The notes below the pieces were generated by a model that was not told the DNA's origin, searched no databases, and saw only the letters and a program-made list of their open reading frames with translations. Of a stretch of 25,250 nucleotides of DNA, positions 1,308 to 6,858 are shown piece by piece. The position numbers and the translations under genes were made by a program. Every line of letters begins with the position of its first letter. Position 1 is the first letter of the stretch. This stretch comes from Burkholderiales bacterium (GTDB lineage Bacteria; Pseudomonadota; Gammaproteobacteria; Burkholderiales; SG8-39), in NCBI GenBank assembly GCA_045810245.1, contig JBJMWH010000253.1:1-25250 (forward strand). The letters run 5' to 3'.

Positions 1308-2059
1308 CCGCTCGCCGGCTCGTTCTGTATGCGGCGTGGGGGTTGATTGCGTACGTCGTCATCTTCCTGGCGCTTGCGCCGGCCGCTTGGCTCGCGCAGA
1401 GCGTCGAGCGGGCATCGCAGCAGCGCGTCGAGCTGCGCGACGCGGCGGGTTCGGCCTGGTCGGGCAGCGGGCGGCTCTATGCGCATTTGCGCGGCGGCGA
1501 ATTCCTGGACCTCGGCTCGGTGCGCTGGAGGAGTGCGCCTGCGGCGCTGCTACGCGGCAAGCTCGCTGCCGACATGACGCTCAACGAGAGCCCGAAGCCG
1601 ATCCGGGTCGAGCTCTCGCCCGGCGCCGTGGCGCTGAAGGACTTCACGCTCGAGGTGCCTGGAAAGGCGCTCGGGACGCTCGCGCCGCCGCTCGAGATCC
1701 TCGGTCCCGGCGGACGCGTGCGCATCCAGTCCGACGATCTGCGCCTGGAGGGCGACGCGGTCCTCGGCCTTGCGACGATCGAGTGGCGCGACATCCGCCT
1801 GGCGCGCGCTTCCGGCGTCGAGCTCGGCTCTCAGGTCGCCCGGCTGCGCGGCGCCGGGAGCCGCGTCGACATCGAGCTCGGCACGCTCGACGGGCCGCTG
1901 CGCGTCGCGGGCGGCGGCACCTGGTCGCCGCGCGGCGGGCTCGTGCTCTCGGGCACCGCCGAGCCGCGGCCCGAAGCCGCCGCAACGCTGGTGCCGTTCC
2001 TGCGCGGGGTGTGCCCCGAGTTCCGCGACCAGCGCTGCATCTTCCAGATCAAGTACTAA
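1304..2059 (+). CDS. gspN: Type II secretion system protein N
   Basis: ATG at 1304 overlaps the gspM stop. 251 aa with an N-terminal TM anchor (LALAPAAWL), a GSAWSGSG motif and a LGSVRW motif. Follows gspL-M. Confidence 0.8.
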   Translation: MTARRLVLYAAWGLIAYVVIFLALAPAAWLAQSVERASQQRVELRDAAGSAWSGSGRLYAHLRGGEFLDLGSVRWRSAPAALLRGKLAADMTLNESPKPIRVELSPGAVALKDFTLEVPGKALGTLAPPLEILGPGGRVRIQSDDLRLEGDAVLGLATIEWRDIRLARASGVELGSQVARLRGAGSRVDIELGTLDGPLRVAGGGTWSPRGGLVLSGTAEPRPEAAATLVPFLRGVCPEFRDQRCIFQIKY

Positions 2060-2092
2060 AAAAATCGGGGCCAGCTTGCGCTGGCCCCGATT
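2058..2092 (-). terminator. Rho-independent terminator for the minus-strand small-protein operon
   Basis: Perfect 13-bp stem (2063-2075 / 2080-2092) with a GCAA tetraloop on the minus strand, followed by a U tract (plus-strand A run at 2058-2064). Confidence 0.85.
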
Positions 2093-2194
2093 GGATAATG
2101 CTCGCCGGCCGGGCTCCCCTAGCCCGAGGAGGAGGAGGAGGCTTCGGATTCGCCCGGACGGCGAGGCAAGCCTTGAGGACGGCGAGCCAAGCCT
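2058..2194 (-). ncRNA. Putative structured 3'-UTR or 3'-derived sRNA with a CCUCCUCCUCCUCCUC loop
   Basis: A 13/14-bp stem encloses an inner AGCC/GGCU stem whose loop is UCCUCCUCCUCCUCG. It lies between the small-ORF stop and the terminator. Confidence 0.4.
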
Positions 2195-2377
2195 TTAAGC
2201 AGCTTGGATTGTTCTGCTGAACGCCCTTCGCGCGCGCGTCAATCCTTTGACGGCTGCATCGATGCGCAGTTCCCAGCGTTCCGCCGCCGCGATGTCAGCG
2301 GCGTAGCGGGAGCGCACGGAAGCCGGCAGTGAAGCGAGGGCACTCTTCCAGAAAGGAGTCATGATTTCGTTACGCAT
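2195..2377 (-). CDS. Small hypothetical protein (60 aa, MRNEIMTPFWKSALASLP...)
   Basis: ATG overlaps the upstream ORF stop (ATGCGTAA). SD-like AAGGTGGT lies 5 nt upstream. Helical, protein-like composition. Alternative start at 2362. Confidence 0.65.
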   Translation of the reverse strand: MRNEIMTPFWKSALASLPASVRSRYAADIAAAERWELRIDAAVKGLTRARRAFSRTIQAA

Positions 2378-2540
2378 GGCGTACCACCTTTGCAATAAGG
2401 GCCGAGCGCACACGCTCATACAGCGAGCTGACGAGCGAGCGGAAAAGCGCCGCGACGTGCATGGAGCGCTCGCGCCGGGCGCGCTTTTCCAGCGCGTACA
2501 ATTCCTCGGCCGTGGGGAGTTGGAACAGGGCCTTTTTCAT
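2370..2540 (-). CDS. Small basic helical protein (56 aa), resembling RSP_7527-type small proteins
   Basis: MKKALFQLPTAEELYALEKRARRERSMHVAALF... The ALExRARxxR...AALF pattern recalls RSP_7527-type proteins (from memory, not searched). Divergent from the LysR, with the ATG 7 nt after a -10 box. Confidence 0.65.
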   Translation of the reverse strand: MKKALFQLPTAEELYALEKRARRERSMHVAALFRSLVSSLYERVRSALIAKVVRHA

Positions 2541-2547
2541 GCACTGG

Positions 2548-2576
2548 AAGATAAGGCCGCCGCCGGCAACAAACAA
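2548..2576 (-). promoter_or_regulatory. Sigma70-type promoter TTGTTT-N17-TATCTT for the small-protein operon
   Basis: Minus strand: TTGTTT (2576-2571), 17-nt spacer, TATCTT (2553-2548), 7 nt, then ATG (2540). No SD sequence. Confidence 0.6.
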
Positions 2577-2598: not shown

Positions 2599-2613
2599 AT
2601 AAGAAAAACTCAT
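2599..2613. promoter_or_regulatory. LysR recognition site (T-N11-A), ATAAG-N5-CTCAT
   Basis: Imperfect palindrome containing T2600-N11-A2612, centred about 66 bp upstream of the inferred start at 2540. LTTR recognition sites typically centre near -65. Confidence 0.65.
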
Positions 2614-2620
2614 CCATAGC

Positions 2621-3562
2621 GTGATTTATCGCCTACCGCCCCTGAATGCATTACGCGTGTTCGAGGCCGCCGCGCGCCATCTGTCGTTCAAGGAGGCGGC
2701 GAACGAGCTCTCGATCACGCAGGCGGCGGTGAGCCACCAGATCAAGAGCCTGGAGGAATATCTCGGCGTGGAGTTGTTCCGCCGCGCCGGCCGGCGCGTA
2801 CAGCTGACCGAGGCGGCGCGCGCCTGTCTGCCGCGGCTGCGCGAGGGCTTCGATTCGCTCGCCGCGGCTGTGGAGATGATCCGCGAGCGCGCCGCCGAAG
2901 CCGACCTTCTCATCACCGCGCCGCCGGTGTTCACGGCGCGCTGGCTGATGCCGCGGCTCGCCGCCTTCGCCAAGCGCGAGCCGAAGATCGAGCTGCGCGT
3001 GTTCGCTTCCAGCAAGATGGTCGACGCCGGCGCGCTCGATTCACCGACGCTGGTGAGCGGGCTCGACCTGCGCGAGGACGCTTCGGGTGTCGAGATCCAC
3101 CTCGGCAGCGGCCACTACCCGGGCTATCGCGCCGACCGTCTCTTCGGCGTTTCGATGACCGCAGTGGCCAGCCCGGAGCTGGTGAAGGGCACTCCGCCGC
3201 TGCGCGAGCCCGCCGACCTCGCGCACCACGTTCTCCTGCACGACGACGCCATGGAGCTCGTCGCCGGTGGCAACGCCTGGCAGCGCTGGCTCGAGAACGC
3301 GGGTGTCGGGGAGCGGGTCGACGCGAGCCGCGGGCCGCGCTTTTCCTCCAACATCCTTTCGCTCGAGGCGGCCTCGCAGAAGCTCGGCGTGGCGCTCGCG
3401 CTCAAGCCCCTGGTCGATGCGGACCTCGCGTCAAACAGGCTATGCGCGCCGTTCGGCATCGAAATGAAGCCCCAATCGGCCTATTACCTCGTCTGCCCCG
3501 AGGTCATTGCCGAACGGCCTGCGGTGAGCGCGTTCAGGAAGTGGCTGCTCGAGCAGGTATAA
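2621..3562 (+). CDS. LysR-family transcriptional regulator, GcvA/TrpI/AmpR-like
   Basis: 313 aa. Contains [57 protein letters not shown] and W..WL, typical of the GcvA subgroup. Confidence 0.93.
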
Positions 3563-3642: not shown

Positions 3643-3915
3643 TTGGCCAAGGAAGAAATGCTGGAAATGGACGGCACCGTCCAGGAAGTGCTGCCGAACA
3701 CGCAATTTCGCGTCGAGCTCGAGAACGGCGCGAGCGTGCTCGCCTACGCCGGCGGACGCGTGCGCCAGCATCGCATCCGCATCCTCGCCGGCGATCGCGT
3801 GCGGCTCGAGATCTCGCCTTACGACATCACCCGCGGGCGCATCAACTACCGGCACAAGGACGAGCGTGCGCCGGTGTACAACCCGCAGCGCAAGCCGGTT
3901 TACAGGAAGAGGTAA
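3643..3915 (+). CDS. infA: Translation initiation factor IF-1 paralog with a basic C-terminal tail
   Basis: TTG start with GAGG 5 nt upstream gives [29 protein letters not shown]...[28 protein letters not shown], plus an extra tail (90 aa). Confidence 0.9.
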
Positions 3916-3920
3916 GAAGC

Positions 3921-3940
3921 TCGGGCGCTGACCCGATTTT
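3921..3940. repeat. REP-like palindrome copy (TCGGGCGCTGACCCGATTTT)
   Basis: Matches the dispersed consensus AATCGGGGTCWGACCCCGATT. Lies just after the infA stop. Confidence 0.5.
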
Positions 3941-3991
3941 CCGTTTCAACTGCCATAAACGGCTGAAAACGGGCGTATTTCTTGCGTCGGG

Positions 3992-4020
3992 CTTGATTCC
4001 GCTCCCGACCGCCGCCACTT
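3992..4020 (+). promoter_or_regulatory. Possible RpoH (sigma32)-type promoter of hsp20-lon
   Basis: CTTGAT-N15-CGCCACTT versus the consensus CTTGAA-N13-17-CCCCATNT. Ends 7 nt before the hsp20 GTG. Confidence 0.35.
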
Positions 4021-4027
4021 ACCGCCC

Positions 4028-4441
4028 GTGAGATCCCGAGATTTTTCCAGTTGGATGTGGGGCGAGGCGCTCTCGCTCCTCGAACAGGCCGATCGCCTGC
4101 AGCGCCAGTTCTTCCGCGTCGCCGGAGCGGAATCCGCGCACACATGGGAGCCGCCGGTCGACGTCGTCGAGTCCGCCGATCGGCTCGACGTGCATATCGC
4201 GCTGCCCGGCGTTTCGGCGGAGTCGATCACGATCGCGCTCGAGCCCGGCGCGGTCGTAGTGTCGGCGCTGCGGCCATTCCCGTGCCGCGAGACCGGTTCT
4301 CACATCCACCGCCTCGAGATCCCGTACGGGCGCTTCGAGCGGCGCCTCGCATTGCCTCCTCAGGTCCCGATCGAGCTTGCGGCCAAGCAACTCGCCGACG
4401 GCGTGCTCACCCTCTCGTTCCGCAGGAAGGAAGGCGCATGA
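4028..4441 (+). CDS. Hsp20/alpha-crystallin small heat-shock protein
   Basis: 137 aa with WEPPVDVVE, IALPGV, RLEIPYGRFERRLALP and DGVLTLSF. ATGA overlap with lon. Confidence 0.92.
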   Translation: MRSRDFSSWMWGEALSLLEQADRLQRQFFRVAGAESAHTWEPPVDVVESADRLDVHIALPGVSAESITIALEPGAVVVSALRPFPCRETGSHIHRLEIPYGRFERRLALPPQVPIELAAKQLADGVLTLSFRRKEGA

Positions 4442-6858
4442 ACACCAAAGTGCTCTCCAACGAAAACCAGGACCGGCCGAGCGCCGCGGGCGCGGCGGCC
4501 GGGAGCGCAATGGCGTCGAAGCCTCTGCCTGCGGACGCGCTCATCGTGATTCCGATGCGCAACACCGTGCTCTTTCCGGGCGTGATTACTCCCATTACCG
4601 TCGGGCGCGCGAGCTCGGTCGCGGCCGCGCAGGAGGCGGTGCGCAGCGAACGCAAGGTCGGCTTCGTCCTCCAACGCGACCCGCAGCGCAACGACGTCCG
4701 GCCCGAGGACCTCTACTGGGTGGGCACCGCCGGGCAGGTGGTGCGCTACATCACAGGCGCCGAAGGCACGCACCACCTGGTGGTGCAAGGCCTCTCGCGC
4801 TTCCGCGTGCTCGAATTTCTCGAGGGCTGGCCGTTCATGGTGGCGCGGGTCGAGATGGTCAAGCAGGACGAGAGCACCTCGTCCGAGATCGAGGCGCGCC
4901 TTCTCCAGCTCAAGCAGCAGGCGGTCGAGGCAATCCAGCTCCTGCCGAACGCGCCCGAGGAGCTCGCGGTCGTGGTGCAGCAGGTGAGCTCGCCGGGACT
5001 GCTTTGCGACATGGTCGCGAACCTCCTCGACGTGAAGAACGAGGACAAGCAGGACCTGCTCGAGACCTTCGACCTGAAGCGGCGACTCGACAAGGTGCTC
5101 GAGCTCCTGTCCGAGCGGGTCGGGGTGCTGCGCATCTCCAAGGAGATCGGCGAGAAGACCAAGAAGCAGTTCGACGAGCGGCAAAGGGAGCACGTGCTGC
5201 GCGAGCAGATGCGCCAGATCCAGAAGGAGCTCGGCGAAGGCGACGATACCGCCGCCGAGATCGAGGAGCTGAAGACAGCGATCGACGCCGCCGGCATGCC
5301 GGAGGACGTCCACAAGCACGCCGTCAAGGAGTTGAAGCGCCTGCAGCGCATGGGTGAGGGCAGCGCCGAGGGCTCGATGCTGCGCACCTACCTCGAGTGG
5401 CTTGCGGAATTGCCCTGGAAGAACGAAGAAGCGAAGCCCATCGACATCTCCGAAGCCCGCAAGGTCCTCGATGAAGACCACTTCGGGCTGGATAAGATCA
5501 AGCGCCGCATCCTCGAGCATCTCGCGGTGAGGAAGCTGAACCCCTCGGGCAGAAGCCCGATCCTGTGCTTCGTCGGCCCTCCCGGCGTGGGCAAGACTTC
5601 GCTCGGCCAGTCGATCGCACGCGCGACCGGGCGCAAGTTCCAGCGCATCGCACTCGGCGGCGTGCACGACGAGGCCGAAATCCGCGGGCACCGGCGCACC
5701 TACATCGGCGCGCTGCCAGGCAGCGTGATCCAGGCCATCCGCCGCGCCGAGTCGAAGAACACGGTGTTGATGTTCGACGAGATCGACAAGCTTGGGCAGG
5801 GCGGCTTCCACGGCGACCCCTCCAGCGCCTTGCTCGAAGTACTGGACCCGGAGCAGAACTCGCACTTCCGCGACAATTACCTGGCGGTGGACTTCGACCT
5901 TTCGAAGGTCATGTTCATCACCACCGCAAACGTGCTCGACACCATCCCGGGTCCGCTGCGCGACCGCATGGAAATCATCCAGCTGCCGGGCTACACCGAA
6001 GAGGAAAAGCTCGAGATCGCGAAGCGCTATCTCGTGAGGCGGCAGATTGAGGCCAACGGCCTGAAGAGCGCGGATCCGGCGGTCGAGAACGTGAAGATCA
6101 CGGACCAAGCGCTGCGTTCCATCATCCAGGACTACACGCGCGAGGCGGGTGTGCGCAATCTCGAGCGCGACATCGGCGCCGTGCTCAGGTCCGCAGCCAT
6201 GAAGATGGCAGAAGGTTTTTCAGGCAAGCTGGAAATCCAATCCGAGGATTTGCATGCGGTTCTCGGCCCGCGGCGCTTCGAGAACGAGGTGGCGCAACGC
6301 ACCGCCGTGCCCGGCGTGGCGACCGGACTCGCCTGGACGCCGGTCGGGGGCGACATCCTGTTCATCGAGGCCTCCAAGGTGCCCGGCAGCGGGAAGCTGA
6401 TCCTCACCGGCCAGCTCGGCGAGGTCATGAAGGAGTCGGCGACCGCGGCGCTCACGCTTGTCCGCAATTTCCTGGACGACCCGTTCGACAAGACCGATGT
6501 GCATATCCACGTTCCGGCGGGCGCGACGCCCAAGGACGGTCCGAGCGCCGGCGTGGCGATGTTTCTCGCCCTGGTATCGCTCCTCACCGGCGTCCCCGTG
6601 CGCTCGGACGTGGCGATGACCGGTGAAATCTCGCTCCGCGGCCTCGTGCTTCCGATCGGCGGCGTGAAAGAGAAGACCCTTGCGGCGCTGCGCGCAGGTA
6701 TCCGCACGGTCATGCTGCCCAAGCGCAACGAAAAAGACCTTGAGGATGTGCCGGCGGAGGCGCGCAAGAAGCTCGAGTTCGTGCTCCTCGAGCGCGTCGA
6801 GGACGCCGTAAAAACAGCGATCGGCGAGCTGCCGCGGGTCGAGCGCCGCGCGGCGTAG
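4438..6858 (+). CDS. lon: ATP-dependent protease La (Lon)
   Basis: 806 aa from ATG 4438. N-terminal [10 protein letters not shown], Walker [10 protein letters not shown], Walker B FDEIDK, catalytic Ser in PKDGPSAG and Lys in IGGVKEK. Confidence 0.97.

Follow-up and report, generated by a model that had tools for sequence, protein, structure and literature searches.

In the window, the 25,250-nt stretch of Burkholderiales DNA analysed here, two small open reading frames (ORF1 and ORF2) are followed on the minus strand by a potential RNA hairpin that presents a pure CCU repeat. An earlier note had read this region as a small protein plus anti-Shine-Dalgarno (anti-SD) small RNA (sRNA) system, analogous to the alphaproteobacterial cuckoo/CcsR RNAs and able to pair with GGAGG ribosome-binding sites. 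Is the hairpin a functional RNA and, if so, from which promoters would it be made and on what would it act? The features of the locus are collected in the table.

Table. Features of the small-ORF and hairpin locus (positions in the window).
Feature	Position	Strand	Basis
Intrinsic terminator: 13-bp stem, GCAA loop, U tract	2058..2092	-	terminator scan (stem 2092-2063)
Long hairpin, 70 nt: 16-bp outer helix and two 3-bp inner helices	2099..2168	-	fold, covariance model R1
(CCU)5C anti-SD-like sequence, mostly within open apical loop	2126..2141	-	fold
21-nt tandem duplication: stop codon region and hairpin 5' arm	2154..2195	-	sequence
ORF2, 60 aa, helical, new family (FW..A..SLP..VR.RY......AERWEL)	2195..2377	-	no Pfam match in 43 members
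Sigma-E-type motif within ORF2: GGAACT (2273-2268), N17, TCAAA (2250-2246)	2246..2273	-	codon constraint
ORF1, 56 aa, RSP_7527-like	2370..2540	-	NCBIfam profile NF046098
TACAAT hexamer fixing ELYA codons of ORF1	2497..2502	+	codon analysis
Sigma-70-type promoter TTGTTT-N17-TATCTT	2548..2576	-	sequence motif
Conserved LysR-type box (T-N11-A), about 65 nt before inferred start	2599..2613		sequence conservation
GcvA-type LysR regulator, divergent from small-ORF operon	2621..3562	+	NF008352, 308.5 bits, cut-off 288

The reverse complement of 2058-2194 folds at -74.3 kcal/mol (z = -3.89), and none of 200 shuffled sequences was as stable. The 13/14-bp stem, the AGCC/GGCU stem, the (CCU)5 loop and the GNRA terminator described in the earlier note were all recovered in place, and the fold check it had proposed came out in its favour. 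The minus-strand segments CUCGCCGUCCGGGC and GCCCGGCCGGCGAG form a helix with a single U/C mismatch, UGC/GCA pairs lengthen this outer stem to 2168-2099, and the inner stem encloses UCCUCCUCCUCCUCG, which reads (GAG)5 on the plus strand (2126-2140). Bases 4-16 of (CCU)5C are 92-100% unpaired in foldings of 76, 114, 183 and 486 nt. We take the loop to be an anti-SD sequence from general knowledge, the 3' end of the 16S rRNA not having been found in the assembly. Its (CCT)5 run is the sole one in the 3.68-Mb assembly (67% G+C), and the core hairpin is present in a single copy in the genome, where covariance model R1 gives it 91 bits. The terminator shares bases with the stop codon of the convergent gene for T2SS protein N, which ends at 2059, and varies between orthologues, being present in 29/53 loci by a crude test and missing in about 45%. 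The 21-nt duplication was not seen in the other orthologues inspected; one RNA contig (run X1) has an extra copy. Taken alone, the hairpin is less striking than the whole fold (z = -2.08, 6/200 shuffles as stable). Since it is only modestly more stable than shuffled sequences, the case for the element rests on conservation.

This conservation is extensive. The hairpin is kept at 54/56 informative GcvA-orthologue loci, from metagenome-assembled genomes of uncultured Burkholderiales/Betaproteobacteria, and lies mostly 5-30 nt past the ORF2 stop codon, with flanks and terminator that differ among orthologues. Across the 37 distinct hairpin sequences, 97.5% of cells are paired, compared to 35-44% in slid controls. 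The fold covaries: compensatory and G-U changes are seen, with both-sided changes at three pairs (13 cells). Nine of the 16 outer-stem pairs are invariant, and the covariation depends on those three pairs among related genomes. U-G variants are numerous and point to the minus strand as the RNA strand. The earlier note had staked its reading on the presence of the CCU loop at orthologous loci, and CCUCCUCCUC lies in the loop of 37/37 distinct hairpins, with a repeat number of 3 to 5. CUGGC directly follows the loop in 31/37 of them; the present locus has CGGGC. Could the hairpin be a chance microsatellite in a 3' UTR and terminator that are G+C-rich but otherwise ordinary? The z value of the hairpin alone and the unstructured CCT runs in other genomes of the order would suit such an origin, which is refuted by the conservation of position, stem and loop over dozens of genomes in which flanks and terminator vary, and which can practically be dismissed. 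That the conserved RNA element is real is almost certain.

Its distribution is narrow. Within the genus, model R1 matches 8/9 genomes sampled; in a sister genus it matches 5/8, and the family has weaker relatives. A search of 150 genomes of the order with strict filters gave nothing credible, only two marginal hits, which we judged to be due to chance, as neither had a small-ORF context and one lay within a coding sequence. An exact search for (CCT)4C in 200 genomes returned mostly coding microsatellites. The close lineage L003 lacks the hairpin through a deletion that recurs in two more metagenomes (L275, L276), and L010 has lost it too. All four loci retain the 3' arm, and most of the promoter motif within ORF2 is kept in L003 and L010; the L003-type loci have TCAGA instead of TCAAA and a shortened ORF2. 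The deletion in one close lineage, in three assemblies, indicates that the hairpin is dispensable.

ORF1 scores 20.3 bits against NF046098 (E 3.6e-4), below the cut-off of 26, and 29/34 of its orthologues match this profile at E <= 0.01 (best 5.7e-10). It overlaps ORF2 by 8 nt. The ORF2 family comprises 146 representatives at 50% identity, and its structure model consists of one short and one long helix. Both proteins are rich in Arg and Ala and not hydrophobic, and searches of the Protein Atlas and by fold returned hypothetical clusters or generic helices only. ORF1 is fused to ORF2 or lost at several loci (L017, L042, L046; L009, L010, L014, L015, L019), where the promoter and ORF2 remain, and usually the hairpin too. 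DUF1127, the small-protein family invoked in the earlier note, was sought in 34 ORF1 and 43 ORF2 sequences without a match, and none was found in the 72%-complete genome. The parallel with DUF1127 thus fell away, and ORF1 resembles the RSP_7527 family.

Cuckoo RNAs (CcsR1-4/RSs0680, ar14/NfeR1; RF02344) are made of 2-4 hairpins of 24-50 nt with CCUCCUCCC loops; among 2,680 genomes they were found only in alphaproteobacteria, where they are RpoH-dependent (PMC4615179, PMC8034643). The element described here resembles them in its anti-SD CCUCCU hairpin loop, often followed by CUGGC, and in the small-protein gene alongside. However, it consists of one 70-nt hairpin with a (CCU)3-5 loop and a conserved stem sequence, and its small ORFs lack DUF1127, unlike the gene adjacent to the cuckoo RNAs in CIN1 (CcaF1-CcsR). 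The motif CCUCCUCCC was present in 0/37 distinct hairpins, and the ar14 model (RF02344), which the earlier note had suggested searching, matched at 18.9 bits (E 0.35), far below its gathering threshold of 58.8. The single hairpin, the missing CCUCCUCCC, the missing DUF1127 and the sub-threshold ar14 match rule out membership of the cuckoo/CcsR family; what stands of the analogy is a conserved 3' anti-SD hairpin behind small-protein genes in a betaproteobacterium. An Rfam search of the window and 11 related loci at gathering cut-offs assigned no family to the element, and the best weak matches, BjrC68 and BjrC174, reflect the shared terminator CCAGCGCAAGCUGG. We take the element to be an uncatalogued sRNA family within a known class, that of anti-SD and 3'-derived sRNAs; its predicted dual control is unusual.

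The hairpin might instead serve the mRNA that carries it, as a 3' element for stability or processing, or as a protein-binding site, with ORF1, ORF2 or another RNA-binding protein, and not mRNAs, reading the CU loop. The outer stem is indeed conserved in sequence beyond what pairing demands, the hairpin keeps its distance from the stop codon even where no terminator follows, and the CUGGC after the loop is also found in stem-loops of CcsR to which the small protein CcaF1 binds (PMC8034643). However, a stability hairpin needs no invariant CCUCCUCCUC loop, related CCU hairpins occur without an ORF (L119, L120) or in three tandem copies (L115), and the internal promoter described below would make little sense for a cis element. 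We regard this explanation as unlikely, though it deserves to be kept in mind. A type I toxin-antitoxin system, or cis-antisense action on the own operon, was rejected since pairing with the ORF2 start reaches only -5.6 kcal/mol; the probably leaderless ORF1 and the composition of the two proteins also disfavour it. We regard anti-SD action in trans as quite likely.

The first reading did not include a sigma-E-type motif that lies inside ORF2. The codon for Glu36 is GAA in 50/51 ORF2 sequences, compared to a genome background of 0.047 before CTN, and the third base of codon 44 is A wherever it encodes Glu, Lys or Gln (47/47), compared to 0.38 elsewhere in ORF2. As a control for kinship, GAA makes up <= 0.45 of the codons in conserved Glu columns of gcvA, taken from these same genomes. 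The constrained codons spell GGAACT-N17-TCNAA, which has the geometry of the sigma-E consensus of E. coli. The genome encodes RpoE, and GAAC-N18-TC is found upstream of rpoE in 20/21 and upstream of rpoH in 20/21 genus loci. A matrix derived from these sites places the ORF2 site at the top of about 590 positions in 48/54 loci, and genome-wide only 8 sites reach the score of the window's ORF2 site, a ranking that is partly circular because the training sites were picked by the GAAC-N18-TC pattern. The raw genome count of GAACT-N17-TCNAA is not above that of other spacers; only at upstream non-coding sites does the motif pick out rpoE and rpoH. Moreover, three ORF2 paralogues that have no hairpin (L264, L266, L267) also have no sigma-E motif. 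Transcription is predicted to start at about 2240 and to yield, up to 2058, an RNA of about 180 nt. We believe that a working sigma-E promoter inside ORF2 is likely, in which case the RNA would not depend on processing from the operon mRNA.

The constraint on ORF2 could nevertheless mean something else, such as a GGAAC-N5-GGAAC repeat for a transcription factor, the site of another ECF factor or an RNA-level signal, with the anti-SD sRNA arising solely from the operon mRNA. Another GGAAC, kept in 47/54 loci, precedes the -35 element by 10 nt and is not explained by a simple sigma-E promoter; several other sigma-70/ECF genes are present in the genome, and the -10 element in ORF2 is TCRAA where the rpoE and rpoH sites mostly have TCTGT and TCTAA. 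In addition, UdsC, an sRNA found behind RSP_7527, has no internal promoter (PMC8625941). Against this, TCNAA stands at exactly the rpoE/rpoH spacing, its final A is kept through Glu, Lys and Gln codons, and secondary sites with TCAAA and TCGAA exist upstream of rpoH. An origin by processing only appears to us improbable, if anything slightly more so than a role in cis.

Returning to dual control, the second input would be the promoter of the operon itself. The orthologous loci have in common the T-N11-A box, a TTG-type -35 and a TANNTT -10. The ATG of ORF1 is 7 nt past the -10 hexamer, and since orthologues usually have it 6-7 nt past theirs, the ORF1-ORF2 mRNA is probably leaderless. The invariant ELYA codons of ORF1 (window 2493-2504) include TTG in 38/38 sequences, compared to a background of 0.04, and a TA-N3-T hexamer was found in the first ORF of 14/16 loci without the exact motif versus 2/54 control windows. 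TACAAT is a candidate -10 element, read from these codons, of gcvA or of an antisense promoter facing the small-ORF promoter. The stand-alone ORF2 paralogues L264, L266 and L267 have promoters resembling the GcvA box region. Genes for an infA paralogue, an Hsp20 and a Lon-like protease come after gcvA (window 3658-6858, plus strand), and Hsp20/Lon also lie beside the related hairpin locus L107.

In three soil studies, contigs from RNA libraries span the ORFs and the hairpin, one of them covering 2134-2592. Contigs reveal neither transcript ends nor strand nor level, and DNA may be present in RNA libraries; these contigs are compatible with transcription of the small ORFs and the hairpin. Their cover of gcvA is poor, and in two studies contigs end at 2528, neither of which indicates level or start.

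We infer from its sequence that the loop may pair with ribosome-binding sites, as the earlier note had proposed. The best duplexes with leaders of the genome are of the GGAGGAGG type, many of them for periplasmic solute-binding proteins. GGAGGAG or GAGGAGG precedes 14/144 solute-binding-protein genes versus 55/3514 others (p = 3e-7), where the target classes were picked after the top of the duplex list had been seen, class names rest on similarity to seeds recognised by motif, and gene starts were called crudely. The enrichment holds when restricted to GGAG-containing leaders. It points to mRNAs that are vulnerable, which is not to say that these are targets. TctC ribosome sites are similar in genomes with and without a model hit (5/27 vs 2/20, p = 0.6), so that the enrichment is not tied to the RNA, and co-evolution of these sites with the RNA was not seen. 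The assembly holds about 138 TctC/Bug-like genes and its relatives 18-123. A sponge or decoy for a G-rich sRNA, or for a factor recognising the anti-SD sequence of 16S rRNA, would agree with a loop that is a pure repeat of little target specificity and with targets unlinked to the RNA across genomes. However, no candidate partner was found for it, and the characterised alpha- and betaproteobacterial CU-loop sRNAs act on ribosome-binding sites (PMC8844928, PMC5688073, PMC11722255). Such a role seems to us very improbable.

On balance, given the loop, its conservation and the two promoter motifs, we favour a trans-acting anti-SD sRNA with two inputs, namely GcvA-controlled transcription of the operon and the internal sigma-E promoter. 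A mechanism that builds on the observed structure, loop, conservation and promoter motifs, and predicts start sites, processing, regulators, use of Hfq and targets, would run as follows. The stretch would be the 3' domain of the sRNA, supplied either as the 3' end of a leaderless GcvA-controlled mRNA or as the transcript of about 180 nt from the internal promoter. Trimming close to the ORF2 stop codon may shorten either transcript to 115-135 nt. Assisted by Hfq, whose gene was found in the genome, the loop would pair with extended GGAGGAGG-type ribosome-binding sites and block translation. The likeliest target class would be the periplasmic solute-binding proteins (TctC/Bug, LivJ-like, DctP-like). 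The outcome would be a smaller load of exported proteins in envelope stress and a tuning of nutrient uptake via GcvA.

The position opposite gcvA recalls GcvB, which in gammaproteobacteria is divergent from gcvA and represses periplasmic amino-acid-binding proteins. GcvB has a G/U-rich seed and no small ORFs in front. Its Rfam model gave no match in 1950-2700 at E <= 10, and synteny with gcvA is all that the two RNAs have in common. If the favoured reading holds, the locus would also suggest what stands opposite gcvA where GcvB is not found. AbcR1 and AbcR2 of Rhizobiales, like NfeR1, act on transporter mRNAs through anti-SD motifs and involve a neighbouring LysR gene and an alternative sigma factor (PMC8844928). 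The present locus resembles AbcR1/2 in the anti-SD loop, in the LysR neighbour (LsrB/VtlR there), in the alternative sigma factor input and, as far as prediction goes, in targets that are periplasmic transport proteins (PMC8844928). Whereas AbcR1 and AbcR2 are two stand-alone genes with one input each, a single RNA with both inputs is proposed here; the sigma factor would be of sigma-E type and no Rfam model matches. MicL of E. coli also has a sigma-E promoter conserved within an upstream coding sequence, where here only the motif is seen, and a long primary RNA that takes in the 3' UTR, with possible trimming at the stop codon (PMC4102768). Unlike the RNA proposed here, MicL has one target (lpp), pairs in the coding region and has no anti-SD loop, and the sequences are unrelated (PMC4102768).

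The host gene family links the RNA to UdsC of Rhodobacter sphaeroides, a 3' UTR RNA behind a gene of the RSP_7527 family (PMC9779115). UdsC is 67 nt long, arises by processing only from an RpoHII promoter, has no internal promoter and targets rpoHII (PMC9779115, PMC8625941). No CCU loop is reported for it, and the likeness, by description, is that of the host gene family (PMC9779115, PMC8625941). Betaproteobacterial and CU-rich like the present RNA are the Betaproteobacteria toxic sRNA, the double-hairpin RNAs and Bordetella S17; these RNAs, which are double hairpins of 57-92 nt, cover ribosome-binding sites of transporter and metabolic genes (PMC5688073, PMC11722255). The RF02278 model found no match at the locus even at E <= 10; a true RF02278 toxic sRNA is encoded elsewhere in the same genus (L242:1501-1565, G207; 59.7 bits).

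Weaker hits of model R1, with stems that differ from that of the window's hairpin, revealed related loci. At L108, L112 and L114 the LysR gene is of another type; the small genes divergent from it contain RSP_7527-like and/or DUF3563-like parts and are followed by a CCUCCUCCUCC hairpin. At L115 a small ORF that is divergent from a LysR gene is followed by three nearly perfect CCUCCUCCUCC-loop hairpins in tandem (minus strand, about 615-950), which make up a cuckoo-like array in a betaproteobacterium. At L119 and L120 a CCU-loop hairpin is directly divergent from a LysR gene with no ORF present, and L117 has a degenerate one, also without an ORF, behind a copy of the same promoter. That such copies exist without an ORF speaks for the RNA being a product of its own.

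If the favoured reading holds, a widespread, uncultured lineage from soil would draw the sRNA arm of its envelope-stress response from this locus, and an anti-SD loop would take the place of the usual porin seed; a literature search found no sigma-E-dependent sRNA of Betaproteobacteria. An RNA with both inputs would be a betaproteobacterial stand-in for GcvB and for the sigma-E sRNA arm. It would also be one member of a wider module of LysR gene, RSP_7527/DUF3563 small gene and CCU hairpin, paralleling the alphaproteobacterial cuckoo loci and spanning different LysR types, small genes of either family or no ORF, and 1-3 hairpins. This module would give a testable context to RSP_7527 and DUF3563, two families of unknown function. 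The full scheme, in which one RNA joins metabolic (GcvA) and sigma-E stress inputs, its (CCU)n loop shuts down much of a solute-binding-protein repertoire that exceeds 100 TctC/Bug genes in some genomes, it replaces GcvB and the sigma-E arm, and the module parallels cuckoo loci, is tentative and as a whole rather doubtful. Finally, a fluoride riboswitch lies near L108.
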